Shown: positions 31,601 through 63,020, counted from the stretch's first letter. The stretch is DNA of 64,000 nt from a virus (IMGVR_UViG_3300020578_005808:20698-84697); one strand, 5' to 3'. Notes: a model not told the origin generated them from the letters alone. Program-made: numbers and translations.

Positions 31601-32390
31601 TAAATTGATAAGAAACTCTAGAAGCAGCTACAGAAGAAACTTCATCTTGAAATTGAGAATAATCAATAAGTATTTTCCCATCTTCAGTAACCTCAGGAAT
31701 ATAATAAGATCCAAGGGGATTGCTTTTTCTACAAATTCGATATTTTATTCTTGTTCCATCTTCTATCGTTACGGAAGGTTCAAAAAGAGAAATATTTTGA
31801 ACCTCAGAATTATTTTCATCATCATATAAAAATTTATATCTTGTAGCGACCTCATTGGAATATCCAGAATATTGATAGTCATAATATCCATATTCTCTAT
31901 CAGTATTATTCGAATTTACTGAAATATTTGTTTGAATCCAATCTTCCCCTGACAAATTTAAAACTTCATAATCACCAACAATAGACTTGGTTAAACCAGT
32001 AATTTCTTGTTTTCTATATAATTTACCAGCGTTATCCATATCTGGCATTATAATTAATGGTTTATAACCACTTACAAAAGAAGTACTAATGTCTGCTGCT
32101 ATTTGTGTATCTGCGTAATTTTCAACTCCTTTAGTTCCTGAAGTTAGAAAAAATCTAGCGTCAGGATATTTCCCATCAAAATTGTAAAAAGAAAATACTT
32201 TTCCAGTTATTACATAATCAACAGTGGTGATGTCTTGTATTATTGGTCTTGGATAAATATATCCATTAGGAGAGGAGTTAAGATTATCAAAAACTGTAGC
32301 CCAAAGGCCAAAAACATATAAATCAAAATCAACATTAGGATCGTTTAAAATTCCAGTAACAAAAGACTTATTTTGATCTAAAACACTCAT
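22689..32390 (-). CDS. Giant (3233 aa) tail fibre/receptor-binding-like protein with degenerate beta-sandwich repeats
   Basis: Uninterrupted 9.7-kb ORF in the tail operon with recurring F-x-[FVI]-x-N-x-[ST]-x3-[LI] segments. Confidence 0.6.
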   Translation of the reverse strand: MSVLDQNKSFVTGILNDPNVDFDLYVFGLWATVFDNLNSSPNGYIYPRPIIQDITTVDYVITGKVFSFYNFDGKYPDARFFLTSGTKGVENYADTQIAADISTSFVSGYKPLIIMPDMDNAGKLYRKQEITGLTKSIVGDYEVLNLSGEDWIQTNISVNSNNTDREYGYYDYQYSGYSNEVATRYKFLYDDENNSEVQNISLFEPSVTIEDGTRIKYRICRKSNPLGSYYIPEVTEDGKILIDYSQFQDEVSSVAASRVSYQFNTLDKLVFPKGVFDNLEDNQSVIRPINDSTITGIELFRSVKDNEDEFNFRILPTGNFSDIYRLSFSLDRYNATSKADVIGYLLTGVDTGNGSSAIVYHVTTDSGVYPRVLPYSKLNTNQLLELANVDDLIYSEEYAQEAAANVDYGDESNLVKNLKQDVSSRLDLMNQLLQDDPFSNPSLGSLNSDDVTRRWVDDKEIQDLNNSNSQGIIEKFTLPVLPLPKESVEESYYSNYLNSGENYIALPLNSYNSNINYIYYGDGYGQLGYYIDEYNDKFYRTIVNSTCGGVYINKTGLCVGDTAIYASMPYIDGIYFLNGIDTAIPANGVITKSNYITTDRWADNLNYYYVKNYISSCDIFPTDSVNARRVALSKALGNAYGLVSKGSGDFISQDPQGEKTPIVFVEREIYVESYDKDQIGLLNNILDTGFNSFANVELSDTPQEKLYAVQVFDKDFAARDDKGVFYFKSHDYQENIIFDSFISRTNSNGDSVLTYGTGDSYGTVYSTDTKLNANQMYRLEYVTGSAFSYNGLSDFVAWNGLQNNTISIPDQNERDYSYHLYEYTLNTDLLTLVKANVKNAETASTSLSKAAVLKFIKKGLGHKTYLITVNGVEYRAIDTSVVDGSNNLVDESKVFFNLQKYNYSAIPSISSTSWFTHKQNPINDDNYGANDSFGLTVPRFFQDAPEDKKSIGEILLNLPNGPTTSKNYEGTPLKGGDVNSFADGVLNNTLVIKEAKSNYEVENDYILNFTQDDGNLFKENLIVGGVNNFSRTRRLKIIKVKYNFYVKDLVILGDSGFPYSIEQNDGWEYKLQYKKKTNNSWSEMPNSEELTNGTIGSVSSFLSPYSYKLKDTSTPNYLSLIAFRTNLSRFLDDSDYEFRVFKYEKLHSPFETVDIIRKVNFLPIQVNWNWDNKSKYFNIYQVDSGNNYRLLNTETVNNNTSFVIPNVKQQYFDLGLANFPVNGSGYYNIIVSGALPTTQEASVNASALFNNNPIGNDGTDLPMTVNTIQNTNYESGYNLLAGATYSSLIQFDNKESKQSGFTINSNYSGYYFITDGKSASITSAFDGLEFYVANTGASSCSLSDSVNGGSTSISSNYVGVVANYPSKTTSAISSLPSLTAEVEDGGFLYLTANASVNPGDFSLGVLKTFTATIINDSSSSITISYNSASISIAANQTKKIDFSNGWNSSYNPTVVENTSYNNVECQVSYISSDEDLVNFNHSLLELKPKSYSNLGIYNFSKEPLSINGDVDLDADSFNLVSWDGSAAAPTVNKKNYFDSIKVFLKGTENEPNNIFVLKDDTEIIISHFGADNSNQQPVEYFFLKDDSINRSLNLKIKNGTNEYFLPRGSEDFKLTITKDSKGVISEKILFPSNDFSTVITDDKEQLIVVKTPSSKIDVGYIESALKSTSFVYFINKSTTPLEFSRNLTQTVFSLANNKIARVVLEKGSGRASIVEISEAYNHLFFNIDPSIYLTGASGINLLNLKFCSTELEIPAASNFADSGTFLINKNRFAPNLIQNIAVKQDQDLLENKLIKGNSKILKLYRKNSSDTIPTLARLEVDQINLNSVFGEKTSSVFGYYDSDSTFHEFDVFYIRDTGLNNLTVSDFYNREGSYNGKVICSTPRNLQLLSFDENKETPVFDKGDSFDFKFDQGTSPDGSIIFDKTDGDIQIFNEQNQNNALKTITELKAGHLCANFSYDRVRLSSEAVDLCKNRIINNSLVTNPIYNNEEFFIASSKEEVARDYYVDNEDSYFYRITYATDVNSIILPDANGIASKFVFLNSGSRPIDLKLISSTGKIITLEPNDNKTLSVSASTWNYANYNPASDGEIPIEGGLSVAYENQNFEIEENHIFKSLWQNQGYSKSSQSISDSITQAFTPLEKVEKTFINLDDLNYSIIDLGEDLTIDSKTNSEASGEPFIFCFGRKGPDLQISENISYILNDFYLYLKCSSGGESNDQTILLKEHVWGNEFARRKTNDLPKKPNIITRTHVDIGSFFEGKYQKINIEDLGGLLLIPFYRECVTFYLPNLKASVSVNENRFTLGELLEDKKFVFVNLVKNNTNSPNQIYNYSDTTTNTNLTEVNSVCIFYVYLNGANYEWKKQTVALPKVQNCFAELKNLKGISLESCSNVTSGNEFVYLPNLNTFKISLDSFENKQFQNFYVYNSCNYPLSVIFNNSSVLKLSSSSAPFNRVSFNGSSFTINPIVYNASTNFIESEILQVPKSDQLVGIANVSFPKPAENSYLKLNYYQSDIRSQRFFSLLKAKDGLWSPVDIESAQNYAFLNLFDLETYDSNSKLFIYGSSIRNQNGYVFDQCELRLTGCDIINDSFFFFNNTLGILKIYFDDSTYSLSLDPLRLAVIYKESGVLKFKYCESHQTSKFYISYRNKNTNFLLDKNISLFVDSCQTIDVRSLSIIENENDNIASDVLLTLHSGKFASCYFNHSFLTNLTPDFLPGVNFINSLSVYSFPTISYFGSRDWYSSPVALLKPTYKLTSHGHYIITNQESTVSLTPYSNNTFLVNNTASDILVKTPDYNVSLYHNTVLVINNSSFRYLKKAKNKDECYAVFNPKTLISTQREVSLVLGIEQHQEILPVSNIDFVQTQSYLKLYSKNNQTETVFLNFENYYKGAEIPNDCPQNILAYELGIGHETIYKFLFFDPSSNYYTLPGIKEGTEYMVEINEGLFYNLFLGDKINDSTISFGSVRYMGKTYYNGQSFIGGKSFWYEIDYPNYVRVSKVVREIPEGFIADPKSQIEEGLADLTIIETENSDKLAGFKDFIFSNIGSSLSLKYGEVASLCWIPDSQNAFWLESNFNKDIWSIQTIYPDSTVKLTFQENGETKELSFVKCAFKKGILKSPILNYGYTFYSALQEKLVMSDTGEITTAFDYGLTPSQKNKFKSSVINKYYVDDYLYSDKAFVFGSLPRNSLLQIDTETPSQLKTSTFDITISLEKMSSMPTLNVEDFNNDSAVQILNQDYE

Positions 32391-46842: not shown

Positions 46843-49800
46843 TTATACAGATTGTGGACCCATTTTTCTTGCAAATTGAGTTGGGAATTGATCTTGTAAA
46901 AATTCCATTACAGCATAAACTTTGTCCGATGTTGTTTGAATGGTTCTCTGATCATTGATATTTATAACATTAGAATTAGTAACTGAAGAACCAGCTTTTT
47001 CAAAGTAAGGCGCAAGTGCTTTTTGCATAGCTTCTCCAACGGCACCAGCAAACTGTTCTGGTGCAAAGTTAGGAACAAATCCTTTAGAAGCGTATCCTAA
47101 TTGAGCTTGTTGAGCCGGATTTAATATAGCATATTGTTCATTAGAATTTTTGGGTTTTGCTCCAAATAATCCCATTCTATTATAAACTTCAACTGCTGGT
47201 ACTTCTATTTCAGCGCTATTTTTAACAATGTTCTTATAATATTTAGAAGGCTGAGGAGTGGCGTTTCTGTAGCCAGAATAATCAGGACTATTTAGCACAT
47301 CTAATTTTTCTCTTGAAAATGCTGCTGCCATGCTAAAATTAGGAACAAAACCTGAAGATTTATTCTTTTTTCTTTTCCTTAATTCTGCTGGAGATATTTT
47401 TAGTTTTTTAGCTTCGTTAATTTCTGACTGAGTATAGTATACGCCTTGAATAAATTGACCTTCGATTCCAAAATTAGTTGCTGCAGCTTGCTTCCTTTCT
47501 GCTTGAGCTAACTTTGGCATTCCCATTCTTCTGTTTCCAAATTTAATACTTTCTACTGAAACTCCTTTATTATAAGCTTGTTGAATCTGATCGTTAGAAT
47601 AAAAACGGCCATTTATTGTTTGCCCATATGTTTGGGGGTTAATTATATTTTTATCAACAGCAGGTAAAGGAGGCAAACCTAAACCAGCGCGTACAAATCT
47701 ACCAGCCCCTTCCGTTTCAGGAATAATTTTTTCAACTGCGACCCCCCTATTGAATGCTTCTTGTCTTTGGGCTGCAGTTGCTCCCCGTAAACTCTCTGCT
47801 TCTCTAGCTGATCTTTCTCGAAATTCTTTTGTAGCTTCAGCAGTTTCTTGGGCTCTAGCAAATTCAGCTTTGCGTTTATTTAATAATTCTGGCTTTGTAA
47901 CTCCTTCTACATAAAAATCACTTTCTTTAGGATTAATTAATCTACGCTCAGACTCTGCTGTATTTTCTTTTTCTTTTTTATAAGCTTGGTAAGAATCGTA
48001 CAAGTCTTCATTACCTTTAAAATTCTCTCTAGTAAAAGCCCCAAAAATTCTTTCTTGAGATATTAAATAATTAGCCTTATCTCTTGAGGTGAATAATTGA
48101 TTCGTTTCTTCATTTTTAATTACTCCTTCAACTAATTTGCTTCTAGTATCTGATTCTTGTTGACGAAGTTCTTTTTGTTCTTCTGAATTTCTTTGATCGA
48201 TTTTTCTTAGCTCTTCTCGTTTCGCAGCGGCAGCAGCAGCAATTTCAGCTTGCTTAGCTTTTTCTTGTCTAGCAATTTCTTCTTGCTCAGCTCTTTTTCT
48301 TTGCTGTTCTTCGATATCTAATTTATCTTGCTCTAATTGCTCTTCAATTGTTAATTTGCCTGATGAGTTTTTAACAAAATTAGGAATAAATCCTTTAGAC
48401 ATATTTCCTAATCCTGCTTCTTTTTCTTCTAAAAGTTTTCTTTTGTATGCTAAATAAGCTTCTAGAGAAACTTTACCCTCTACGACATCTTGCTTACTAA
48501 TTCCTTCGCCTAAATCAGATTTTTTAGCCCTACGAGCGCGATCTGCCATTGTTGAACCTGCGTAAAGAAATGATTCTCCAAGCATGTTTCCAATGCCTAG
48601 TTTTTCTTCTAAGACATTACCTCCTCTATATCCATAGCTAGCGGCTAAATAAGCTTGACCAACTGGATTAAAAGCAAAAAGAGCGTCGAATCCTAATCCA
48701 GCAACACTTGAAGCAATATCAAAACTATTTCTATATTTTTTCCCAGTAACTGGATCTACCGATTGACGACCTAAAAAGATATCGCTAAAATCTTCTGCTA
48801 TTTGATTATTTTTTGATAACGCGATTTCTGAACCTAAACCCAAAAATGATGCGGCTGGTAAGATTTTACCACCGAGACTCATTCCCTTTTTAGTTAAAGA
48901 AGCAAGTAATAAAGAACCTTCAGCGGCTTTTAAACCAGCTAAGCCATAATTTTTTTCTTGAGCTTGTCTAACTGACTCTCCAATCGCGCCTAAACCACCC
49001 AAGGCAATAAGTGGCTTAGTTATTTTTCCAGCTACTCCAGAAGCAGCTCTAATAAGTTTTCCAGCTTTACCTGATAAAAACTTAGAAACTCCTCCGAAAG
49101 CTTTACCAGATAATTCAGACATTCTAGAGGTAACATTTGAATTTTTTATTCTAGATCCTATGTGTTTTATTGAATTTATTACTGAAGATTCTTTAATATT
49201 GATTTTAGGCGTTCCTATAGGAGATGGAGTTGATCCCGCTGGACTTTGGACGACTGGCAATTGAGGAGGACGAGACGAGAGAGATAAAGGATTTCTTGCG
49301 GGCGACTCAGGTGGAGCTACTCCTTCAGGTTTATTTCCTATAACATTTTTAACTAATTTACTTAAAACACCTTTTCCTATAAATCCGCTAGATCCTTCTG
49401 CATTTGTTGGATTAACTTCAAAAACAATTGTACTTACCCTACCTCTTCCTCCTGAATAAAATTCTTTTGGTTTAACTCCAGCTTCAATCGCAGCTTCTAA
49501 ACTAGTACCCCCAACATCGACACCAAAAAATGCATTTCTAATATTTTTTGTTCTGACTAACTCTCGAATATTTTCAAATGCTGTTGATTCTGCAGTTTTG
49601 CGAAATGATTCAGCCATTTTTACTGCTTGTGATTTTGATAATCCTGCTTTTCTATAGGCTTCAACAGATGGTTGAGAAGTTGGATCAAACCCAGTAGCTT
49701 TTAAAACTGTGCCTCCTTTAATTATTTTAATTTTACCGTCTTTATCTACCGCAACATGAACGCGCAATTCATTATAATAAGTCGGTACTTTATTTTGAAT

Positions 49801-52800
49801 GAAAAATCCGCTTCCAGTTCCTTTATTATATTTTTCTATTATAGATCTAGTATCTTTTGTTGTTAAGGCACCCCCTAATCCATAAACTCCTTTGCTTTGA
49901 TAATTAGCATTACCAAATGCAGTTTTGACAAGAACCGATCTTCCTTCGGAAAGTTCATTTATTTTATCCAATAAATTTTTAGGAGTCAATCGGCCATCTG
50001 ATTTTAATTTAGCTATGATTCGATCTATTTGTTTAGACCTTGCAACAGAAGGTAATTTCAACTCATCTAATTTAGAAACTTTGGGATCTTTTAATGATAA
50101 AATAGATTGACCACTTTGGAAGCCTCCTTTTAAAGTTGCCGTTGAAATCATTTTAGCGTCTTTTGGCAACTTACCTTCTGTAATGCCTCCTTCTTCAACA
50201 GATCCATCAGGATTTACTTTTCTATAAATATCATCTATATTGTCCCAAACATAAAGCTTACCTGCTTTAGCACTTAAAGCAGCTTGTTGAGCCTCATCTT
50301 TTCCAAAGGCCGCATAATTTGGTATAAAACCAGAAGCTTTCGATGCTATTGAATTATTTTCTAAGTTTAATCGACGTAAAACAGAAGATGGATCTTGCTC
50401 TAAAAAAGGATAATTATTTAATTTTTTACCTGTTTTTTTATCTGGATAACGCCAAATTGTTTTATTTTCTTTAAAAAATTTAGGTAAATCCGCTATAGGT
50501 ATTTCTCCTCTTATTGTTACTGGGGCGGTTGTGGCAGAAACCGCGCCCCTAACTGTATTTTTTAATCTACTACCAAAAGATCCGCTTGTTGTATCTTGAT
50601 TACTTATTGCGTATTGAGATCCCGTGGCAATATTTTGAGGAACTGGATCCATTTTCGATTTAAAATAATCAGCCAAACCTCCCTCTCCGGGATGAGGATC
50701 AAAATCCCAACGATCAAAAAACTTAAGCTTACCTCCTTCAAAGGAATATCCATAATTACTCATTACGTCATGTCTTCCTGCTGACGCTCCTTTAACTCCA
50801 CCAGAAGAAACAAAATCTAGTCTCGCTTGAACTGCATTTAAAACAGCTCTCCTAAATAAATTTTTACCTTCGTCTGTGTTTTGATTAAATCCTATTGACT
50901 TGTCTGGATTTTTTACATACCATTTCTGCCAATCTGTTTGAGGCTCTAAACCGAACATCCATCTATAAAGAGGCTCTCTAAATTCAGTTCGACCTTCCGA
51001 GGTGTAAGCTTTTTCCTGATATCTTTTTTGTAAACTTTTAGTTGGTTTATCTAAAACTACAGATGGAATTAGACCAATTTCATCCTGACCCATTTGTCCA
51101 GAAACTAAATCATAACCCTTGGAGGCTAAATCGTAACCCAAAGGAGTAGTTAAATTAGTTAAAAATCGACCAACAGTTTTACTAATCAACGGAATTTTTG
51201 CAGTTCCGGGCTCATAAATTTCTTCTGGTTCATTAGCAAAATTAGGAATAAAACCTTTAGAGGCTAATCCAATACTGGCTAAGCCATTAGGTTCATCTAT
51301 TGTATTTGTTACCGCTAACCCCATAGGGTTACGGCTTGAAATTAATTTTTCACTTTGATTAACTCTTATAGAATTAAATGGAACATATTGACTCTCTCTA
51401 GCTATAGCTTCTCTTAATGGATCGTAAAAACTTGGAATAAATCCACCACTTTTAGTAGTTGGCGCAGCGGCTGGAGGATTAGCTTGCTGAGCGTTCCCCA
51501 AGCCAAGAAAACTCATTACATCATTTATAATAACAGTAGAATTGAAAGCATCAATTTTACCATTAGTAAATTTAAAACTATCTCCCAAAGAACCTCGAAT
51601 TGCGTCGGTAATATTTTTTTGTAAGCTAGCTCTAAATTCTTCGTTTTTACGAGTTTCTGCTTCTACCTTGGGAAGATTTTCGGATTCAAGTTTTCTAAGA
51701 GATCTATCTTCTGCAAATTTAGCTCCTAATGAATCTAAACTATCTTTAACAACATCACCAAAGTATCTAATAGCTTCAGCTGGATCTTCTCCAGTTTGTA
51801 ATTCTGCGCCGACTTGTGTTTCTGCAATATTTCTTAAAGATAAAGTATCTGTTGCTTTAGTTCTTAAAATATTAGCTGTTCCTGCAAGACCTACAGATTG
51901 TAAAACACCTGCATCTCTAAATAAATCCTTTTGTAGGTCTCTTGTCCTAAGGGCTACTAATCTATCTGTGACTGATTTTAAATCAACTGATTTATCAATC
52001 ATTCCGGGATATTTCTCCTGAATAGATTTTAAAAGATTTGTTAGCCCAGAAACCTGAGACCTTTCTGAACCTAGCATTGACCCGAGCCTATATTGAAGAG
52101 CACCAGTTAAAGGAGCATTAATAGAAGCAATTCTTGAGGCTGCGTCTGTAGATGTTTTTATTCCCCCTGCAAAAGATAGTTTTTCTTGTATTTTAAGAAC
52201 TTTTAATTGAACTTCTTTGTTAATTTCTGCAATTTTAGAAATTTGCTCAAGTTGTTTTGTTTGGCGCTCGCTACTAATTGCTAATTCTTCTAAAGAATCT
52301 CTTTGTTTTTCATTGAGATTCTGATCCTTTGCCATTTCTCTAATGAGACTAGTTGTTTCATCAGATGGTTTTTCAATTTTACCTAAAGCTTCAGAAATAT
52401 TTCGTGGTAATTTTAAATCTTTATCTGTTGCTTTTAGATTAAGTAAGTTTTTAAAAGAAGAAGAAACCTCTAATGATTTTTTCATTTTATCGGCTTCTAC
52501 CCCAAAAGAAATTGCAGCTCTTGGTCCGAATTGAGAAGCGAAACTACTTAAATCATTTATTCCTTCTCCTAATGCTTGAGTTCTTACGGATCTTAATTCT
52601 CTAGCTCGATCTATTTCAGCTCTTTGTTTGATTTCGCTTCCCCTGATTTCACTTATTTTTTTATTTGCTTGCTTATTAACTTCTAAAAATTTAATTTCAC
52701 TATCTACAGATTGTAAAAAAAGTGGAAGTAATTTATCTTTAGTTGTTTTGTCAACCGTGTTAAAAAATTCTAGTAGATATTCTAGTTCAGATCCCTGAGC

Positions 52801-55800
52801 TATTTTTTCAAAATTTTCAGGTTTTAAATCTGCAGATGTAAATTTAAATAAATTTTCTCCAGCAGTAGAAATTAAACGTGAAAAAGATTTATTTAATTCT
52901 TCAGGCGTTCTAATTTCTCCTGATTTAAGCGCTACAAGTTCTTCTTTACCGGTTTGTTGTCGAGTAGCTTTTCTACGGGCATCTTCTATAATTTCAATTC
53001 TCTTTTCTAAATTAGGTTCTGAAGCTAATTTAGAGGATAATCCGGGGTTAGTTCTTGATAAATTCCTTACTAGTTCTGATTCTCTTTTTGAAAGTTTGAT
53101 TAATTGTTCTGGTGCTGTTGAGGCGTCTTTAAAAGCGGCATCTAATTTAGATAATGTATCAACTAATTCTTGGGTACCTTCAGTAACAGATTTGAACTCT
53201 CTTGCAGAAGCATCGATTTCTTTTTCTAATTTTCTTCTTTGTATATCTTGAGTAATTTGACCTGATGAAAGAAGATTCAATCCACCTTGAGCTAATCCAA
53301 CACCAATCGGAACACCGGCAGCGACAGCTCTTCTACTAAACGGCTGACCTTTAGATTGTTTTAAACCTCTTCTTGCTCCTAAAATTCCTCCTAATAGTGG
53401 GATTCCAACTTGAAGAGCAGTATTTACTTCTGGGCCGATTCTTTCATTTAAATATAATTCATTTAATATAGAGGTAACGCCTGCAAGACCGAATGTTTGT
53501 AAAAAAAAGCGTATGAAATCTTTTGATGCGCTTTCAGAATCTGGGGAAGCTTCTATAGTTTTTCTTGTAAATCTTCCTCTAGCGTCTCTTGGGAGACTAG
53601 GTCTTGCGAAATTGGGAACAATATCTTTAAGACCATTAGGTTCGTCTCTTTTATTTGTTACGGCAGTTGGATTTCCTTTGCCGTCGAAGTGAGCCATGAT
53701 TTGAGAGGCTGGTAAACCAGTCATCATTTTTTCTCTATTTATGGCATCTGATAAACCAGCAAAATTAGGAATGTATCCATTAGCTCTTGATATAGAAATA
53801 AGACTATCTGGTCCTAACTTAGAAACTCCCATTTCAGCAGCTTTTTTGAAAAAATCTCTTCTAGCTTTTGCTTTTTGTGGTACATTTAATAAAAATTCTA
53901 GATTTTCTAAACTAATCTTATTTGGATTATCATAGAAAAACTTTAAAATTCCTCTATTGAAATTTTGTCCTTTCGCATCTTTAGTACCCATTCTTCCGCC
54001 AATCCAAGTTGCAGCTTGGACACCTAAACCGCTAACACCTGCCCTAGCGCCTACGTTTCTAAAAGCTTGAGAAACCTTGTCATACTGCTCCCTGTTCATG
54101 CTGGGGGCATTTTTTACATTAAATTCTTTATTTAAAGCATCTCCTTGTGCTCTATAATCGACAGTAACATCTTGGCTGCCGAAAGGATCAAGCATGTTAT
54201 TTACGAATGCTTTTCTCTTATTGCCAGTAAGATTTTCTAAACCAACAAGTAGATTTGCAGCTTTAAGTCTATTTGCTCCATATGTTTGAGCTGTAACCGA
54301 TGCTATTTCTCTCTCGTCTAAAAATATTGGAGAGGCTATTGTTGAAAGTTTCTTCTGAGTAAATAGATTATATCTTAAAGCATCCAAAGCATTTCTCTCC
54401 AATGGATTTGCTGGAGAAAGAGCCGACATTACACTTGCAAATTTCTCAGGAGAAGTTCCTGATGCTTTAGAAAATACTTTAATTAAATTGTTATAATCCT
54501 CATAAGCTCTAGCAAAGTATTTTTGATTTTCAGGACTTAATTTTTCAAAGTTTTTTGCTATATTAGCCTCCATCTCTGCGGATGAAATGCTTGGGAATTT
54601 ATATTTATCTTTTTTAGCAAAATTAGGAACATATCCAGAAGCTAAAGGAGATCCTATTATATAATTACCAGTCTTCTTTTTGATATCAAAGTATTTAGAT
54701 ATTTCTTCTAAATATCCAGAAGCTGGCAAATTACGTTGATATCCTTTAGATGTCGGCGCGCCTATTCCAGACTTATTTCCCTCATAAATACCAAAGAAAG
54801 CAGATCCCTTTGGCTTGATTGATTTGCTAATAAATTTCAGCAAATCTTCTCTAGCTGGGCCTTCTTTTATTACATTCAGAACATTAGCTATAGTAGCAGA
54901 ATCTGCTGAACCGAAAAAATCTTTTAATGTTTCTTCGTTGAATTCTTTTGTTCTATTGTATGGATCATAAACTCTAGATTTAATTCTAAATTTTTTTGCT
55001 AGGAAATCAGTCCCTGTGTCATATTTTCCTCCTCCGATATCTATATTGCGAGGCCCTAATTGCCCTCCAAATTTTTTAAATAATCCTGGAACTTGATTTA
55101 ATGATGTTTCTGCGGAAGAAATTTCTTGAGAAAAATTCGGAATATATCCTTTAGACATTCTGGGGATGTCTTTCATTTTTCTATATCTAGGAATTATTGC
55201 AGTTTCTCCAGTTCCAGCGAAATTAGGAATCACGTCTTCTTCGCTGTTGACCATTACTGGTTGAGTTTTTCCTTTAATTGTCGCGTTTATTAATTTCGGA
55301 ACAGGATTTTTAGCTCCAAAATTTTTGGCTTGAGAGACTTCTTCGGCAGCCATCGATGTTGCAAAATTTGGAATATATCCACTTGCAGATCTCCTTGGTC
55401 TTCTAGTAGATCGCGCTGCTGGAAGTTGTGTTATATCCGTATACCCTCTAGTTCTTAAATCCGAAGCTAATACTCTAGATAAAGAAACTTGTCTTTGTAA
55501 TTCTAAATTAATTCTTTTAATTTCTTCAAAGACTTGTTTTCTTGCTCTAGCCTCATTGTACGTTGATGTAGCTGTATCTTTAGTTAATCCAGAAATTCTT
55601 TGCATAACTCCGCTAATTTGAGTCTGCAAGGCTAATCTTTCTCTTTCTTTTTCTCCAAATAGACTACCTCCTGTAACATATCTTCCAAGAGGATCTGTAA
55701 TTTCTTTAGCTTGAGTTTTTAAAGAGGCTCCTATAAACTTTATTAACTTAATTCCTAAGCCAGCCCCAATTGTTGCTAAAACCGGACCACCTGTATATAA

Positions 55801-57078
55801 GAAAAAGTTTCCTAAAGCATTGGAAAGGCCCTTAGTTATTTCTTGACCAGCGCCCTTAGCCATCGCTTGGCCAGCATTGATTCCAGCTTCTTCAAATTTT
55901 TCTGGAGATAATAATTTTAAACCAAATTGAATAGCGCTAGTGCCACCGGTAATTAATGGTCCAAATAAATTTTTACCAAGATCCGAACCTACTTGAGTAG
56001 CTATTGCTGCTGTTTGAGAAATTAAAGCGCTGTAACTTTTATTTAATTGCTCGTTCTTTTTTATTGCTTCATCAGTCGCCGAAATAGAAATCTTTAAAGA
56101 ATTAGAATAAATACTATTTGCGCTAGATAAGTCTCTTATAACAGCTTGTAATTGGTTAATTTGATAAACACCACCAAGTAATTCAGCTGTTCTAGATTTT
56201 TCAGCTTGACTTAAGTTTTTTGTTGCTTCTGAATAATTTTTTAAGATTTGAATACCATTAAGTAAAACTCCATTTTGATCTTCGACTACAACTCCTAATT
56301 GTCTTAATTGATCTAAAATTTCTGGTCTTCTTACTCTTGTAAAAATAGTTTTTAAAGCGTTACCGATAACAGCGCCACCACGACCAGTAATTTGCTGCGC
56401 TGTTGTAATCGTTGCAACTAGCTCGTCAAAAGATAGCCCGCTTTCTTCAGCCGAACTTCCTACGCGGGTTAAGGCTTCGCTAAGCTGAGCTGCACTAACC
56501 GCAAATCTAGAATCAACAGCAATAAGTTTACTTATAATTTCAGTACTACTAAGAGCTTCTTTATTAAATCCGTTAATTGCTGTTGTTATGCTATTAACTG
56601 ACTGAGCGTAATTTAATCCTGAAACCCTTGATAATACAAGAGCATCATTAGTTCTTTTGAGCGTTTCTTCTGTAGATAAGCCTTGCCTCGCAAATTCTTT
56701 AGCTGCTTCAGCGACATCCGAAAAATTAGTGGCAGTGGCTCTTGCTATATTAAATAAACTTTTACCGAATCTGTCTAAATTTTGCTGAGACTCTCCTAAG
56801 AAAGTGTTTAATTCTACTAATTGTTTATTAACTTCAATTGTAGATCTTGCGGCGGCAGAAATTGCTTTATTTACTGCTAAAATACCACCTGTAATCGCTC
56901 CGAATGCTGTAACGCGGGCAGCGGCAGCTTGTAAAGATTTTGAAAATTCCGCAGCGTCACTACTAATTCTTCCTAAAGGTTGAGAAATACCCCTATTGAG
57001 CTTTGATTTAAAAATATCAATGTCTCTATAAGCTCCTGCTGTATTTATCCTAAGATCTGCAACGATTGTAGTAGGCAT
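46843..57078 (-). CDS. Tail tape measure protein (TP901-type core) with embedded enzyme-like cassettes
   Basis: N-terminal core: VAEAAKEFARQGL...SVNSITTAINGF...LSEALTRVGSSAEESGLSFDELVATI...IGNALKTIFTR. Canonical position after the tube and chaperone genes. 3411 aa. Confidence 0.93.
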   Translation of the reverse strand: MPTTIVADLRINTAGAYRDIDIFKSKLNRGISQPLGRISSDAAEFSKSLQAAAARVTAFGAITGGILAVNKAISAAARSTIEVNKQLVELNTFLGESQQNLDRFGKSLFNIARATATNFSDVAEAAKEFARQGLSTEETLKRTNDALVLSRVSGLNYAQSVNSITTAINGFNKEALSSTEIISKLIAVDSRFAVSAAQLSEALTRVGSSAEESGLSFDELVATITTAQQITGRGGAVIGNALKTIFTRVRRPEILDQLRQLGVVVEDQNGVLLNGIQILKNYSEATKNLSQAEKSRTAELLGGVYQINQLQAVIRDLSSANSIYSNSLKISISATDEAIKKNEQLNKSYSALISQTAAIATQVGSDLGKNLFGPLITGGTSAIQFGLKLLSPEKFEEAGINAGQAMAKGAGQEITKGLSNALGNFFLYTGGPVLATIGAGLGIKLIKFIGASLKTQAKEITDPLGRYVTGGSLFGEKERERLALQTQISGVMQRISGLTKDTATSTYNEARARKQVFEEIKRINLELQRQVSLSRVLASDLRTRGYTDITQLPAARSTRRPRRSASGYIPNFATSMAAEEVSQAKNFGAKNPVPKLINATIKGKTQPVMVNSEEDVIPNFAGTGETAIIPRYRKMKDIPRMSKGYIPNFSQEISSAETSLNQVPGLFKKFGGQLGPRNIDIGGGKYDTGTDFLAKKFRIKSRVYDPYNRTKEFNEETLKDFFGSADSATIANVLNVIKEGPAREDLLKFISKSIKPKGSAFFGIYEGNKSGIGAPTSKGYQRNLPASGYLEEISKYFDIKKKTGNYIIGSPLASGYVPNFAKKDKYKFPSISSAEMEANIAKNFEKLSPENQKYFARAYEDYNNLIKVFSKASGTSPEKFASVMSALSPANPLERNALDALRYNLFTQKKLSTIASPIFLDEREIASVTAQTYGANRLKAANLLVGLENLTGNKRKAFVNNMLDPFGSQDVTVDYRAQGDALNKEFNVKNAPSMNREQYDKVSQAFRNVGARAGVSGLGVQAATWIGGRMGTKDAKGQNFNRGILKFFYDNPNKISLENLEFLLNVPQKAKARRDFFKKAAEMGVSKLGPDSLISISRANGYIPNFAGLSDAINREKMMTGLPASQIMAHFDGKGNPTAVTNKRDEPNGLKDIVPNFARPSLPRDARGRFTRKTIEASPDSESASKDFIRFFLQTFGLAGVTSILNELYLNERIGPEVNTALQVGIPLLGGILGARRGLKQSKGQPFSRRAVAAGVPIGVGLAQGGLNLLSSGQITQDIQRRKLEKEIDASAREFKSVTEGTQELVDTLSKLDAAFKDASTAPEQLIKLSKRESELVRNLSRTNPGLSSKLASEPNLEKRIEIIEDARRKATRQQTGKEELVALKSGEIRTPEELNKSFSRLISTAGENLFKFTSADLKPENFEKIAQGSELEYLLEFFNTVDKTTKDKLLPLFLQSVDSEIKFLEVNKQANKKISEIRGSEIKQRAEIDRARELRSVRTQALGEGINDLSSFASQFGPRAAISFGVEADKMKKSLEVSSSFKNLLNLKATDKDLKLPRNISEALGKIEKPSDETTSLIREMAKDQNLNEKQRDSLEELAISSERQTKQLEQISKIAEINKEVQLKVLKIQEKLSFAGGIKTSTDAASRIASINAPLTGALQYRLGSMLGSERSQVSGLTNLLKSIQEKYPGMIDKSVDLKSVTDRLVALRTRDLQKDLFRDAGVLQSVGLAGTANILRTKATDTLSLRNIAETQVGAELQTGEDPAEAIRYFGDVVKDSLDSLGAKFAEDRSLRKLESENLPKVEAETRKNEEFRASLQKNITDAIRGSLGDSFKFTNGKIDAFNSTVIINDVMSFLGLGNAQQANPPAAAPTTKSGGFIPSFYDPLREAIARESQYVPFNSIRVNQSEKLISSRNPMGLAVTNTIDEPNGLASIGLASKGFIPNFANEPEEIYEPGTAKIPLISKTVGRFLTNLTTPLGYDLASKGYDLVSGQMGQDEIGLIPSVVLDKPTKSLQKRYQEKAYTSEGRTEFREPLYRWMFGLEPQTDWQKWYVKNPDKSIGFNQNTDEGKNLFRRAVLNAVQARLDFVSSGGVKGASAGRHDVMSNYGYSFEGGKLKFFDRWDFDPHPGEGGLADYFKSKMDPVPQNIATGSQYAISNQDTTSGSFGSRLKNTVRGAVSATTAPVTIRGEIPIADLPKFFKENKTIWRYPDKKTGKKLNNYPFLEQDPSSVLRRLNLENNSIASKASGFIPNYAAFGKDEAQQAALSAKAGKLYVWDNIDDIYRKVNPDGSVEEGGITEGKLPKDAKMISTATLKGGFQSGQSILSLKDPKVSKLDELKLPSVARSKQIDRIIAKLKSDGRLTPKNLLDKINELSEGRSVLVKTAFGNANYQSKGVYGLGGALTTKDTRSIIEKYNKGTGSGFFIQNKVPTYYNELRVHVAVDKDGKIKIIKGGTVLKATGFDPTSQPSVEAYRKAGLSKSQAVKMAESFRKTAESTAFENIRELVRTKNIRNAFFGVDVGGTSLEAAIEAGVKPKEFYSGGRGRVSTIVFEVNPTNAEGSSGFIGKGVLSKLVKNVIGNKPEGVAPPESPARNPLSLSSRPPQLPVVQSPAGSTPSPIGTPKINIKESSVINSIKHIGSRIKNSNVTSRMSELSGKAFGGVSKFLSGKAGKLIRAASGVAGKITKPLIALGGLGAIGESVRQAQEKNYGLAGLKAAEGSLLLASLTKKGMSLGGKILPAASFLGLGSEIALSKNNQIAEDFSDIFLGRQSVDPVTGKKYRNSFDIASSVAGLGFDALFAFNPVGQAYLAASYGYRGGNVLEEKLGIGNMLGESFLYAGSTMADRARRAKKSDLGEGISKQDVVEGKVSLEAYLAYKRKLLEEKEAGLGNMSKGFIPNFVKNSSGKLTIEEQLEQDKLDIEEQQRKRAEQEEIARQEKAKQAEIAAAAAAKREELRKIDQRNSEEQKELRQQESDTRSKLVEGVIKNEETNQLFTSRDKANYLISQERIFGAFTRENFKGNEDLYDSYQAYKKEKENTAESERRLINPKESDFYVEGVTKPELLNKRKAEFARAQETAEATKEFRERSAREAESLRGATAAQRQEAFNRGVAVEKIIPETEGAGRFVRAGLGLPPLPAVDKNIINPQTYGQTINGRFYSNDQIQQAYNKGVSVESIKFGNRRMGMPKLAQAERKQAAATNFGIEGQFIQGVYYTQSEINEAKKLKISPAELRKRKKNKSSGFVPNFSMAAAFSREKLDVLNSPDYSGYRNATPQPSKYYKNIVKNSAEIEVPAVEVYNRMGLFGAKPKNSNEQYAILNPAQQAQLGYASKGFVPNFAPEQFAGAVGEAMQKALAPYFEKAGSSVTNSNVININDQRTIQTTSDKVYAVMEFLQDQFPTQFARKMGPQSV
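47063..55389 (-). repeat. Dispersed peptide repeat S-x-G-[FY]-[IV]-P-N-[FY], 12 copies (2 partial), inside the TMP
   Basis: Copies at about 55361-55389, 55217-55233 (VIPNFA), 55128-55155, 54617-54642, 53759-53784, 53606-53622 (IVPNFA), 51427-51450 (GFIPSF), 51236-51264, 50312-50337, 48374-48399, 47332-47358 and 47063-47091. The + strand core AAATTAGGAA recurs in several copies. Confidence 0.92.
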
Positions 57079-57100: not shown

Positions 57101-57107
57101 ATTACAC
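57101..57107 (-). promoter_or_regulatory. GTGTAAT candidate late-promoter motif
   Basis: In the short gap 22 nt upstream of the TMP ATG, followed by two AAGG elements. Confidence 0.45.
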
Positions 57108-58099
57108 TATATTCCATGCATTTTGAGGAAATCTTCTTTAGTTAATTTATTTCCTTTTTGTTTGGCTATATCTGATATTGCAATAGCACTTCCTCCAGCC
57201 ATTTTTTGTAATTCTTCGTGAGAGGCTCCAACATGACCTACACCTAAAGATTGTTCGTTTTGATTAACATCTTTTTCAGAAGCGACCATCTCGTACCATT
57301 CGATCATCTTATCAGGATCTTCTGCAACGTCTTCGGGGGGAGAAGACTGAGCCTTATTTTGCATTAAAGACTTAAAATACTTACATTGAGAAAAGAGATT
57401 GCTTTGGAAAATAGTTAAATCTTTAATATATTTACCATAAAAATAAAAAGCATTATCATTACAAAGATAAAATAAATTCATTAAAAAAGGACACGCTGAA
57501 ATTCTTTTAATTTCTGGGATAGAAAATTTTTTATAAAATGTATTTAATTGATGAATTAAGTTTACTAACTCATCATCTTCTAAAGCATTAAACTCGTCTG
57601 CGGAAAAAAATTTTTCTTTCAAATCTTGATCTTTATAAAAAGCTTGGGAGATAAAAAGTTCGTTATAGTTTTTCTCAACATATTCCTCAGCAGTAAAACC
57701 AATAAGTGTATTTTTTTCTCTTTCTATTTCTAAAAGTTTATTTTCTGCTGTTTGTATTTTCTTTTTTGTTTCAGTGATTTGTCTTTTTATGATTAAATTT
57801 TTTAATATTAAGTCAAGATCTGAAACTTCTTTTTTTAATCTTTCTATTTCTACTTCTTTTTCCCTATCCCAAATTTTTTCTTTTAGTAAAAATAAAATTT
57901 TATCTTCCCTTTGCTCCAGTCCTTTACTTAAAGCTTCCTTAAGGTAAATTTGTTTATTTTTAGAAAGAATTCCATTTTCAATTTCTGTAAAATGCTTAAT
58001 GAAAATAGGCTTTCCCGAGTAATTAAACTCAGAAAAGCCTAAACAAATTTCTCCGTATAAATTTTTTAAAAAATCTATTTTAGTCGAAGAATCAGACAC
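57107..58099 (-). CDS. Putative tail assembly chaperone
   Basis: Helical and charged, immediately upstream of the TMP. C-terminal FYGKYIKDLTIFQSNL resembles chaperone tails. Confidence 0.5.
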   Translation of the reverse strand: MSDSSTKIDFLKNLYGEICLGFSEFNYSGKPIFIKHFTEIENGILSKNKQIYLKEALSKGLEQREDKILFLLKEKIWDREKEVEIERLKKEVSDLDLILKNLIIKRQITETKKKIQTAENKLLEIEREKNTLIGFTAEEYVEKNYNELFISQAFYKDQDLKEKFFSADEFNALEDDELVNLIHQLNTFYKKFSIPEIKRISACPFLMNLFYLCNDNAFYFYGKYIKDLTIFQSNLFSQCKYFKSLMQNKAQSSPPEDVAEDPDKMIEWYEMVASEKDVNQNEQSLGVGHVGASHEELQKMAGGSAIAISDIAKQKGNKLTKEDFLKMHGI

Positions 58100-58109
58100 A
58101 ATATATATA

Positions 58110-58823
58110 TCAAGAAACTAACTCTTCCTTACTCACTCCTGAATTTAGCTGACCAATTAAAAAGGCTCCCTTCTCAACAGCGCTAACTAAAAATGAATCT
58201 TCAGAATCTTCTATTTGATTTAATTTTTCTAAACGCTGCTCGAAAGAACCGTCTCCAAAAAGACAAGATTCAGATCCTTCTTCTCCAGAATGCAAAAGAT
58301 GAAGAACATACCATAAATTCAAAAGATCAGAAGCTCTCTTTTCAGCTGTATTATCAAATAAAGAATTTTGAATACTTTCATATTCGTAAATTTTTTGCCT
58401 TAATACCTTATATTCATCATTTATATTAGTAATCTTAAGTTCCTTTTCAGCGTCAGACAGGGCTGTATCTTGCTTAATTTTTTCTGCCTCAACTTCTAAA
58501 AGGATAGCTCTTGAATAATTATCAGAATATTCCTTCTTCTCATCTTCAGATGCGGAAATCCCTTCCTTCTGAAACTTCTTAAGAAGAAAAGCCTTAGTTA
58601 TAAGACCTAATTTAATTCCTTCTGATACTTTTACAGAATAAAAAATTGATGAATCATCTTGTATTTTTCTTGTCGGCTTAAGAATAGCAAATCTTTGAGG
58701 AACATTCTTTTCTATCTCACGGGTAACTTGTATTTCATTACCAGCATCATCTTTTTCTGTTGTTGTTTCTTTTACCTTTTGAGCTTTATCAAGAGAAAAG
58801 GTATGTAGCCATTTTTCTTTCAT
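58110..58823 (-). CDS. Putative tail assembly chaperone
   Basis: Between the tube gene and the TMP; coiled-coil and acidic. Confidence 0.45.
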   Translation of the reverse strand: MKEKWLHTFSLDKAQKVKETTTEKDDAGNEIQVTREIEKNVPQRFAILKPTRKIQDDSSIFYSVKVSEGIKLGLITKAFLLKKFQKEGISASEDEKKEYSDNYSRAILLEVEAEKIKQDTALSDAEKELKITNINDEYKVLRQKIYEYESIQNSLFDNTAEKRASDLLNLWYVLHLLHSGEEGSESCLFGDGSFEQRLEKLNQIEDSEDSFLVSAVEKGAFLIGQLNSGVSKEELVS

Positions 58824-58824
58824 A

Positions 58825-59106
58825 TTATTTTAAAGTAATGTTTATAGACTTAAAAGTAGTATCTATGTTTCTGATCGCGTCATTTCCAGCGTCAAGAATC
58901 TTCTTTCTTATGTAATTATATTTATTAGCATCAAAATAATCAATATTTTTTACAAATTCCCCTGAGGTTTTTTCTTTAACTTTTTCTAATAAAGCTAAAT
59001 GATCTTTGTGTAAATCTTCTACCATTTCAAAATATTTTTTATATAATGAAATAATACCCCGATCCATTTGAAATTTTAAATACTCTTTTAATTTTAAGTC
59101 ATCCAT
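58825..59106 (-). CDS. Hypothetical protein
   Basis: Helical ORF (RKKILDAGND). Likely start is the ATG at 59106, with TATAAT about 10 nt upstream (track gives 59127). Confidence 0.6.
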   Translation of the reverse strand: MDDLKLKEYLKFQMDRGIISLYKKYFEMVEDLHKDHLALLEKVKEKTSGEFVKNIDYFDANKYNYIRKKILDAGNDAIRNIDTTFKSINITLK

Positions 59107-59147
59107 AAGCCTACATATTATAAACAATAATATTAAAAATATAAAAT

Positions 59148-62399: not shown

Positions 62400-63020
62400 T
62401 CAACTTAATACAGATAAAGAACATCCAGAGCTAATTACTTCCCCTAAAGAATTATAAACTCTAAGAGAGTAAACTCCTTGATCACTAGTTTGAATTCCAC
62501 TTAAAACTAAAGGAACAGAATTAGCCCCAGCGATGTCTGCTGAATCCTTCTTCCACTGATAATTTAAAGGTTGACCATTTACACTGCAGGTTATAATGCA
62601 ATTGTCACCAGTCAAAACTGCTATTTCAGAAGGTGGTTGAATATTGATTTGAGGAGGAATTACAGGAAAAGGTTGATCCTGCCATGGTAAAGGAGGTCTA
62701 ATTACAGGTGGAGTAACTTGATTTAAAATTTGGTTGATAGCTGCATTTTCAAAATTGTTTTTACTTTCTTCTCCAATTATATCAAACACCCAATTCAAAA
62801 CATCGCTTTCAGTCAAATCTTCGTAAGGAATGAAATTGCCTGAATTTACAGGTATAGATGTGCAAGAAAAAGTTCTCCCATAAAAAGGCCCACCGCTAAC
62901 GCCATTGTAATAAGTATCACAATCCCAATGAGCTGCAAACACATAATCTTTTTGACCGCTAAACTCTGGGTAGCATTCTAAAACATTAATTTTCCATTTT
63001 AATTGAATATCATCGCTCAT
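62400..63020 (-). CDS. DUF7936-like N-terminal domain fused to an I-set-like immunoglobulin domain
   Basis: WKINVLECYP...HW...FIPYEDLTESDVLNWV...PPLPW, then PQINIQP...GQPLNYQWKK...DQGVYSLRVYNSLGEVIS. Confidence 0.7.
   Translation of the reverse strand: MSDDIQLKWKINVLECYPEFSGQKDYVFAAHWDCDTYYNGVSGGPFYGRTFSCTSIPVNSGNFIPYEDLTESDVLNWVFDIIGEESKNNFENAAINQILNQVTPPVIRPPLPWQDQPFPVIPPQINIQPPSEIAVLTGDNCIITCSVNGQPLNYQWKKDSADIAGANSVPLVLSGIQTSDQGVYSLRVYNSLGEVISSGCSLSVLS

Follow-up and report, generated by a model that had tools for sequence, protein, structure and literature searches.

A 64,000-nucleotide stretch of viral DNA (IMGVR_UViG_3300020578_005808:20698-84697; the whole stretch is referred to below as the window, with positions counted from its first letter) carries on its minus strand, at 46843..57078, a gene for a tape measure protein (TMP) of 3411 amino acids (aa; about 370 kDa) without a single cysteine. 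Our overall reading, which we consider probable, is that this TMP doubles as a modular carrier of host-directed enzymes that are exchanged at a shared joint peptide. According to this reading, an invariant scaffold, consisting of the N-terminal TMP core, central and C-terminal segments of hydrophobic and helical character and a C-terminal tip module, is interrupted by cassettes that correspond to complete proteins, with every junction built from the peptide [SA]-x-G-x-[IV]-P-N-[FY]-[AS]. The exchange itself we regard with high confidence: cassettes are swapped, inserted, deleted and reordered as whole units among related phages, with the crossover falling inside the stretch of about 20 nt that encodes the peptide.

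As a preliminary description of this DNA had proposed, the open reading frame (ORF) at 46843-57078 is, by its profile matches, a TMP. Indeed, residues 113-301 matched PF10145 (E 8.3e-29), and the TMP families of PHROG matched the ORF down to 1e-51 (phrog_4211 at 1.1e-51). The gene is the largest of the tail module and lies between chaperone-like genes and distal tail genes, in an order (products of 381, 100, 237 and 330 aa, the TMP, then 622, 610, 596 and 1154 aa) whose synteny is kept in relatives; its flanking genes matched no family in Pfam or PHROG. No TMP relative above approximately 30% identity was found among cultured phages, where the nearest proteins are the giant TMPs of long-tailed siphoviruses, for example those of Lactococcus phage 949 and Bacillus phage Tsamsa; these distant TMPs contain no comparable repeated motif. 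The carrier is a large uncultured phage, probably with a long and non-contractile tail. A search of a metagenomic protein collection (E up to 0.001, scoring only the 2,608 candidates that shared most words) returned at least 457 long proteins (1.9-6.0 thousand aa) that match the window TMP. From this family, 121 relatives (P0001-P0121, P0001 being the window TMP itself) were examined for the motif, the modules and cysteine.

A regular-expression scan of the TMP for [SA]-x-G-[FY]-[IV]-P-N-[FY]-[AS] returned 12 copies, at the residues where they had originally been noticed, of which nine are strict G[FY][IV]PN[FY] copies, two are partial (DVIPNF and DIVPNF) and one reads GFIPSF. From the composition of the protein, the expected number is 3.8e-4 for the strict form and 0.16 for the [IV]P[NS][FY] core, and the maximum in 2000 shuffles of the TMP was three; with 12 copies against 0.16 expected, the array is real and well above anything that chance would give. 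The N-terminal core (aa 1-566) contained none, and a six-frame translation of the rest of the window gave two isolated xPNF matches, neither in a G-x context, in line with the initial observation that the motif is absent from the core and from the other genes of the window. The borders proposed for the inserts also held, as motif copies flank aa 650-814, 821-1100, 1948-2249 and 2256-2895. The resulting map of the gene, from the N-terminus to the C-terminus, is as follows (predicted local distance difference test, pLDDT, values are those of AlphaFold2 models).

46843..57078, minus strand: whole TMP gene, 3411 aa
55381..57078, minus strand: N-terminal TMP core, scaffold family 0 (aa 1-566); motif-free, one unit in 113 of 121 relatives
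55363..55380, minus strand: motif copy 1, GYIPNF (aa 567-572)
55150..55362, minus strand: junction module family 7 (aa 573-643), including partial copy 2
55219-55236, minus strand: motif copy 2, partial, DVIPNF (aa 615-620), within the family 7 module
55132..55149, minus strand: motif copy 3, GYIPNF (aa 644-649)
54637..55131, minus strand: cassette family 21, small class I S-adenosylmethionine (SAM) methyltransferase-like (aa 650-814)
54619..54636, minus strand: motif copy 4, GYVPNF (aa 815-820); pLDDT about 50-62
53779..54618, minus strand: cassette family 11, DUF7178, predicted HhH-GPD-like fold with helical C-terminal extension (aa 821-1100)
53761..53778, minus strand: motif copy 5, GYIPNF (aa 1101-1106); pLDDT below 50
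53626..53760, minus strand: junction module family 1 (aa 1107-1151), in the order helix, hairpin, helix; pLDDT 75-86
53608..53625, minus strand: motif copy 6, partial, DIVPNF (aa 1152-1157)
51445..53607, minus strand: central scaffold family 2 (aa 1158-1878); one unit in 63 relatives
51427..51444, minus strand: motif copy 7, GFIPSF (aa 1879-1884)
51256..51426, minus strand: junction module family 1, second copy (aa 1885-1941); pLDDT 77-87
51238..51255, minus strand: motif copy 8, GFIPNF (aa 1942-1947); pLDDT 31-48
50332..51237, minus strand: cassette family 49 (aa 1948-2249), shared with P0005 and P0073
50314..50331, minus strand: motif copy 9, GFIPNY (aa 2250-2255); pLDDT below 50
49309..50313, minus strand: predicted ATP-grasp domain (about aa 2256-2565, with the segment extended to 2590)
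48394..49308, minus strand: Gly/Ala-rich hydrophobic region (aa 2591-2895), fused to the ATP-grasp domain with no motif between
48376..48393, minus strand: motif copy 10, GFIPNF (aa 2896-2901)
47353..48375, minus strand: segment family 50, charged and helical (aa 2902-3242)
47335..47352, minus strand: motif copy 11, GFVPNF (aa 3243-3248)
47083..47334, minus strand: junction module family 4 (aa 3249-3332); in 33 relatives
47065..47082, minus strand: motif copy 12, GFVPNF (aa 3333-3338)
46846..47064, minus strand: C-terminal module family 3 (aa 3339-3411); 42 relatives, conserved C-terminal columns

Hydrophobic stretches were present in the N-terminal core (aa 51-70 and 425-454) and in the central scaffold, where a hydrophobic segment (aa 1252-1271) is followed by a long helical region. 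With the central scaffold as a single query sequence, a scan of IMG/VR gave no match. The equivalent of the Gly/Ala-rich region in a relative matched Gly-zipper_Omp.

Across the 121 relatives we counted 763 copies of the motif, with nearly all proteins carrying between one and 12. Their consensus, [SA]-x-G-[YF]-[IV]-P-N-[FY]-[AS], is dominated by the proline (100%), the asparagine (96%), the glycine (85%) and the final aromatic residue (F or Y, 99%). In 67 related IMG/VR loci analyzed together with 10-kb flanks, the motif was nearly confined to the TMP ORF, the exceptions being two single copies in short opposite-strand frames within the TMP gene. When IMG/VR was searched with a 20-nt degenerate DNA pattern, 113 of the 118 stretches containing motif DNA (118 being a lower bound) were ORFs of the TMP family, and two of the remaining five were multi-copy ORFs that are probably divergent TMPs. 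The number of copies tracks the number of junctions and not the length of the protein (1-13 copies in TMPs of 1.9-5.4 thousand aa), and the spacing between copies is aperiodic (Rayleigh R 0.29, compared with a null 95th percentile of 0.42). A distant member on an IMG/VR contig of 208,933 bp (L035) encodes a TMP of 5469 aa with at least 11 copies of the joint in the form [SA]-x-G-x-[IVL]-P-N-F-A, where S, D, R, K, Q or E replaces the aromatic residue after the glycine; given this variation, the invariant core of the joint is G-x-[IVL]-P-N-F-A. Judged from these distributions, a large uncultured family of TMPs uses the motif as its standard joint.

To describe the architecture of the family, the 121 TMPs were cut at the motif and the pieces clustered into families by end-to-end similarity. 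A fixed scaffold emerged. It begins with the N-terminal core (about 570 aa), continues through a junction module of 45 aa, the central segment (about 775 aa), another junction module of 58 aa and the C-terminal segment (about 900 aa), and ends in modules of 83 and 73 aa; the long scaffold segments contain no internal copies of the motif. In the window TMP the scaffold accounts for about 2400 of the 3411 aa. The variable array consists of cassettes of 100-500 aa, in roughly 50 families, which are gained, lost and reordered as whole units across relatives, so that, for instance, families 9, 11 and 22 follow each other in this order in one relative and as 9, 22 and 11 in another. In pairwise protein alignments, 26.5% of the ends of high-scoring segment pairs lay within 5 aa of a motif, compared with 2.5% of random points. 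Both the clustering and these alignment ends bear out the expectation that the segments between motifs vary as units while motifs and linkers stay fixed.

The same pattern was visible in the DNA. At six junctions examined in closely related genes, the sequences switched from near-identical to unrelated inside about 20 nt of motif DNA, and where blocks sharing at least 85% nucleotide identity ended internally, they did so within 20 nt of a motif in 41.6% of cases, compared with 1.3% for random points (approximately 30-fold). The suggestion that the motif DNA is the site of cassette swapping is thus well founded. Cassettes share high amino acid identity between relatives, compared with 40-54% identity in the TMP core. 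A 465-aa segment of one relative (L001, aa 628-1092, family 24; compared with L007 and L002) consists of the N-terminal half of another cassette fused to DUF7178, which indicates that some recombination falls inside cassettes and erases a joint, and that not all events use the motif.

The first insert, the methyltransferase-like cassette (aa 650-814), has more than 400 free-standing homologs of 160-280 aa that align over 90-99% of its length, and none of 120 such homologs contained the motif, which means that the joint is not part of the domain. Among 52 sampled members of this family, 18 matched PF13489 (Methyltransf_23; best E 2.6e-11) and six matched PF08242, and the family shares an invariant D-x-G-G-G in the Gly-rich SAM loop. 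The window copy alone gave just PF08242 at E 0.07, which is below threshold, and the family profile matched nothing in the PDB. A match to the cassette with 37% identity was found in the 485-kb genome of an uncultured phage (LR745208.1, 187358-187783; unannotated in the record), the sole match to a non-core part of the TMP in the collection of cultured and GenBank phages.

The second insert (aa 821-1100) matched DUF7178 (PF23802, E 2.5e-21), of which there are about 150 free-standing homologs of roughly 200 aa, and its AlphaFold2 model (pLDDT 82) is that of an HhH-GPD DNA-glycosylase-like fold. Indeed, VIA-align placed the Tm1821 8-oxoG glycosylase (3n0u) first (Z 10.2, 170 of 209 residues), followed at ranks 2-13 by OGG1, MagIII, MutY, EndoIII, NTHL1 and AGOG together with two queuine salvage (DUF2419) chains; Foldseek agreed weakly (probability up to 0.98, but E about 0.1). 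One lysine and one aspartate are nearly invariant in 111 sequences, within 'G.K..AF..N...P.....VTVD.HA', and are candidate counterparts of the catalytic aspartate, and of the lysine of bifunctional members, that follow the HhH motif in this superfamily. For aa 2256-2565, an AlphaFold2 model with pLDDT mostly 75-97 points to an ATP-grasp fold: the top matches listed by Foldseek were almost all ATP-grasp proteins (PurK, RimK, Ddl, TTL and LysX; probability about 1, E to 1.5e-4), the ESM Atlas returned viral RimK-like clusters at 0.93 with 10 of 10 matches in one clan, and VKTAFG, ELRVHV, GVDVG and FEVNPT can be read from the sequence as candidate motifs. This domain is present in 31 of the 121 relatives. 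The cassette at aa 1948-2249 (family 49; 53% identity with P0005 and 51% with P0073) had no Pfam match and no lead in the ESM Atlas, its alignment being shallow and its model poor. In relatives, further units were recognized, such as an ART-PolyVal domain (E 6.7e-25) in the cassette at aa 855-1049 of P0058, exactly between two motifs, and a T4 Y16D-like unit.

The inserts are therefore enzyme-like, as had been supposed, given the methyltransferase family, the two predicted folds and the ART-PolyVal domain of P0058. The ratio of nonsynonymous to synonymous substitution rates (dN/dS) was 0.07-0.15 for the methyltransferase cassette and 0.06-0.10 for the DUF7178 cassette, a range that indicates functional cassettes under purifying selection. 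By their homologs, the cassettes are complete proteins, some of them recognizably captured from free-standing families. Basic charge was also considered as an adaptation of the captured cassettes and was rejected, because the free-standing homologs are already basic and the shift is small.

A second property that the cassettes share with the scaffold is the lack of cysteine. Of the 121 giant TMPs, 120 were without any cysteine, cassettes included, compared with about 10 cysteines per 1000 aa in free-standing methyltransferases, about 13 in free-standing DUF7178 proteins and 2-16 in the other tail proteins of the phage. The TMPs of 949 and Tsamsa are likewise almost free of cysteine, from which it follows that the absence is a property of TMPs that the captured enzymes acquired. 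We infer that the loss of cysteine may have fitted the captured enzymes for being stored in the tail and passing through it.

With respect to structure, the motif copies in both AlphaFold2 models fell into stretches of low confidence (pLDDT 30-62) between confident domains, while the small junction modules were modeled as helix, hairpin and helix with pLDDT 75-87. Family 1 of these modules, with 111 copies in 105 relatives, has an invariant R-E, N-P, N, D-E and G. In the window, its two copies around the central scaffold (53626-53760 and 51256-51426, minus strand) show R-E, N-P, N and D-E-P-x-G-L as invariant within about 50 aa. No match to the junction module was found among PDB sequences or in NCBIfam, including the Rhs core models, and the C-terminal 177 aa of the TMP gave only chance matches in the PDB.

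Given that crossovers fall in the motif DNA, we asked whether the motif is conserved as a peptide or as a DNA sequence. The proposed DNA core, AAATTAGGAA on the plus strand, corresponding to TTCCTAATTT on the coding strand, was its commonest form, alongside synonymous variants. Silent variants are frequent (GGA/GGT, CCT/CCA/CCG, ATT/ATA and AAT/AAC), while amino acid changes are limited to F/Y and I/V. Codon positions 1 and 2 are essentially invariant and position 3 varies (CCA 28%, GGT 27%, AAC 21% and TTC 26%), which shows that selection acts on the peptide. We also compared codon use in 311 motif copies from 61 genes with that in the rest of each gene. For asparagine and phenylalanine the choice was the same as elsewhere in the gene, but for proline, isoleucine, valine and glycine one codon was overused in the motif (CCT 63% versus 32%, p 1.5e-26), with CCT, ATT and GTT among the overused codons. 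Such a bias would arise if cassettes were exchanged repeatedly through the joint, or if microhomology were mildly selected. The idea of the motif as a microhomology anchor holds insofar as crossovers occur in the motif DNA, but microhomology alone is insufficient, since the amino acids are fixed while silent sites vary. The joint, which is situated outside the folded domains and is nearly exclusive to TMPs, is thus subject to purifying selection at the peptide level. On codon evidence, the motif appears to be both a peptide and a DNA signal, with the peptide being primary.

The genes next to the TMP gene provide further context. Three upstream genes (57107..59127, minus strand), encoding proteins of 100, 237 and 330 aa, are conserved in at least 60 related loci; none of the three products matched Pfam, PHROG or the PDB, and there was no sign of the usual frameshift arrangement of chaperones. 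The 237- and 330-aa proteins are acidic (isoelectric points 5.0 and 5.4) and helix-rich in appearance. They were considered as proteases and rejected, there being no family or PDB match; their acidity, helix-rich look and lack of matches make them more chaperone-like than protease-like. These three genes are probably tail assembly chaperones of a novel family. The 330-aa protein is unrelated to the products of similarly placed genes in 949 and Tsamsa. On the other side of the TMP gene, the tail module (16491-46837, minus strand) includes a second giant ORF of 3233 aa (22689-32390, minus strand), eight ORFs of 556-1162 aa and one of 183 aa. Neither the giant ORF nor its neighbors in the module matched Pfam, and the region is a predicted baseplate or fiber apparatus of very large dimensions. 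Furthermore, a 206-aa protein encoded at 62400-63020 (minus strand) combines DUF7936 with an Ig domain, of the kind seen in Hoc-like decoration or in tail tube Ig proteins, and its position is conserved in relatives.

How might the cassettes be used? We favor the reading that they remain in the TMP of the virion, leave through the tail together with it and would act in the cytoplasm of the host. A TMP-fused enzyme that is delivered and active in the cell is already known from gp96 of phage P23-45 (PMC10770324). The requirement of the cassette enzymes for SAM, ATP, NAD+ or DNA points to action in a cytoplasm. As for the joint itself, conservation this strong demands either a specific partner or an intrinsic chemistry. 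We put forward, tentatively and short of considering it probable, that the joint is a specifically recognized processing site that frees the cassettes after ejection, by means of a dedicated protease or of asparagine-dependent self-cleavage. Otherwise, by analogy with gp96, the cassettes would work tethered to the TMP channel, an option nearly as likely as processing. A more far-reaching version, which we regard as unlikely, is that the joint peptide and the small junction modules form a self-contained release system, in which the TMP cuts itself, or is cut by an unrecognized protease, at up to a dozen sites into freed enzymes and channel-forming pieces, with the DNA of the peptide serving as a universal splice point.

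Several observations weigh against the overall reading. Profile searches of the TMP and of the window's tail genes turned up no recognizable protease domain, the head module lying outside the window, and no peptidase family, including those of the MPTase type, was detected in the window TMP or in six relatives with E up to 0.05-0.1. No gene of the family was naturally split at a motif among more than 180 members; the sole candidate for such a fission, P0020, was rejected as it is cut by a contig end. The low pLDDT of the motif copies could stem from a contact that is invisible to a monomer model. Stronger constraint, instead of recent transfer, may account for part of the excess identity of the cassettes, since the synonymous divergence (dS) exceeds 1. 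Finally, a tube lumen of about 4 nm would be too narrow for three copies of a folded domain of 165-300 aa, so the cassettes would have to travel unfolded.

These considerations bear on each of the explanations that compete for the joint. In a true polyprotein, which we see as a possibility that still falls short of an even chance, the motif would be cleaved by a phage or host protease, or at its conserved asparagine, and the TMP would fall into about 13 pieces after tail assembly or during ejection, which would set free both the enzymes and the membrane-active segments of the scaffold. A near-invariant motif of 7-9 residues at every junction of unrelated domains is what one would expect from viral polyprotein sites, and its position in the unstructured linkers of the models, the free order of the cassettes, their nature as complete free-standing proteins that normally work alone and the selection of the motif as a peptide, not merely as DNA, all fit this explanation. 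By analogy only, the Asn-Phe bond is the one that is self-cleaved in the maturation of tetravirus capsids. The missing protease and the lack of split genes count against it, however, as does the restriction of the motif to TMPs, which makes a general phage protease with further virion proteins among its substrates unlikely. Moreover, the ruler must remain intact during tail assembly, and cleavage in front of G-[FY] or N-[FY] would leave an aromatic residue at the new N-terminus, where it acts as an N-degron in bacteria.

An uncleaved structural joint would dispense with the protease: the motif and the junction modules would hold the three TMP chains in register, serve as a hinge or bind tube, chaperone or tip, and the enzymes would act tethered at the cytoplasmic mouth of the channel, on incoming DNA or on targets close by. 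Such a joint would allow the insertion of foreign domains while leaving the ruler undisturbed, gp96 of P23-45 being proposed to work as a fusion, and it would suit a motif that is confined to TMPs, always lies beside conserved helix-hairpin-helix modules with invariant polar residues and has conserved acidic, helix-rich-looking proteins of the TMP-coating kind encoded just upstream. We nevertheless consider it rather unlikely, as ordinary interdomain linkers do not need such conservation, the copy number follows the junctions and not the TMP length, long scaffold segments are devoid of copies, and the monomer models give the motif no structure. The aperiodic spacing counts against it as well and led us to reject a regular contact of the motif with the rings of the tube. 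Modification of the motif by the ATP-grasp domain, in the style of graspetides or RimK, was dismissed as a general account, since the domain is present in only 31 of the 121 motif-bearing TMPs. That the motif is solely a recombination device, based on microhomology or site-specific, with a peptide that has no function of its own, is very improbable. The crossovers inside the motif DNA and the more uniform proline, isoleucine, valine and glycine codons would agree with it, but third codon positions vary freely while the first two are nearly invariant, a pattern that a purely DNA-level signal would not leave, distant members vary the residue after the glycine yet keep G-x-[IVL]-P-N-F-A, and no recombinase was seen next to the TMP gene.

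The closest analog in logic is found in the polymorphic toxins, where a conserved peptide, the VENN motif of CdiA or PxxxxDPxGL of Rhs, separates a constant carrier from variable cassettes. There too, a short peptide forms the border at which cassettes are swapped by recombination, and the Rhs border also cleaves itself. Unlike the tandem array in a phage structural protein described here, however, these systems carry one C-terminal toxin, use bacterial secretion systems and have other motifs; the resemblance of N-x-x-D-E-P-x-G-L in the junction module to the DPxGL of Rhs is superficial, with no support from hidden Markov models. Viral polyproteins and proteins processed by prohead proteases resemble the TMP in that short consensus sites are repeated between the functional units of a virion-associated precursor, and a conserved short site indeed lies at every junction of functional units in the TMP. 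For T4 gp21 and phiKZ gp175, prohead-protease processing of internal or ejection proteins has been demonstrated along with the cognate protease, whereas here no protease was recognized and tail assembly takes place apart from the prohead protease. TMPs in which cell-wall hydrolase motifs are embedded are known as well, such as that of mycobacteriophage TM4 with its Rpf-like motif and the peptidase of T5 pb2. They likewise hold enzymatic segments inside a TMP for use at infection, but there the segments are directed at the envelope, each protein has one or two of them and no shared motif delimits them, while the cassettes described here are enzymes of the cytoplasmic type.

Giant proteins of phages and conjugative elements that string together counter-host enzyme domains have been described as polyvalent proteins (Iyer, Burroughs, Anand, de Souza and Aravind 2017, PMC5512222). 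As in these proteins, in which unrelated methyltransferase, ADP-ribosyltransferase (ART) and nuclease domains are combined, architectures change fast between relatives and entry into the host with the DNA is predicted, the TMPs place several unrelated effector-type enzymatic domains in one giant protein with shuffled architectures; ART-PolyVal, the domain found in P0058, was itself defined in that work (PMC5512222). In contrast, PMC5512222 never mentions TMPs and reports no common delimiting peptide, whereas the carrier here is a TMP, and the MPTase or other peptidase domains invoked there for processing, which are frequent though not universal, were not found here. The second precedent is gp96 of Thermus phage P23-45, a TMP of 5002 aa with an N-terminal virion RNA polymerase, which is found in virions, acts early in infection and for which passage through the tail channel was proposed by the authors (PMC10770324). 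It shares with the window TMP an enzyme within the TMP polypeptide, which acts in the host cytoplasm in P23-45 and is predicted to do so here, and differs in having a single, fixed N-terminal enzyme with no array, repeated joint or exchange; the two show no sequence relationship. The searchable literature contained no relevant paper with the motif strings and none on a tandem, motif-fenced and shuffling array in a TMP. Within that literature, the statement that no system with this grammar has been described holds, while the general idea has precedents (PMC10770324, PMC5512222): TMP-fused enzymes and polyvalent proteins are already published.

Provided that the cassettes reach the host, a widespread group of uncultured phages would have in its tail lumen a route of protein injection with an exchangeable payload that comprises methyltransferases, glycosylase-like proteins, ADP-ribosyltransferases, ATP-grasp ligases and many unknown folds. 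The motif provides a simple rule for cutting giant TMPs into units and thereby yields dozens of candidate early anti-host or anti-defense proteins, most of which belong to no known family. It also offers a clear natural case of domain-level recombination at a fixed peptide-coding joint. At the same time, whole enzymes within a ruler protein that is stored in, and passed through, a 4-nm tube pose a physical puzzle, for which the strict absence of cysteine suggests that the cassettes may travel unfolded. Should the joint and the junction modules indeed form a release system, the siphophage tail would inject a polyprotein that yields customizable free enzymes, and the TMPs would be a phage counterpart of the Rhs and CDI cassettes, arranged in tandem arrays.

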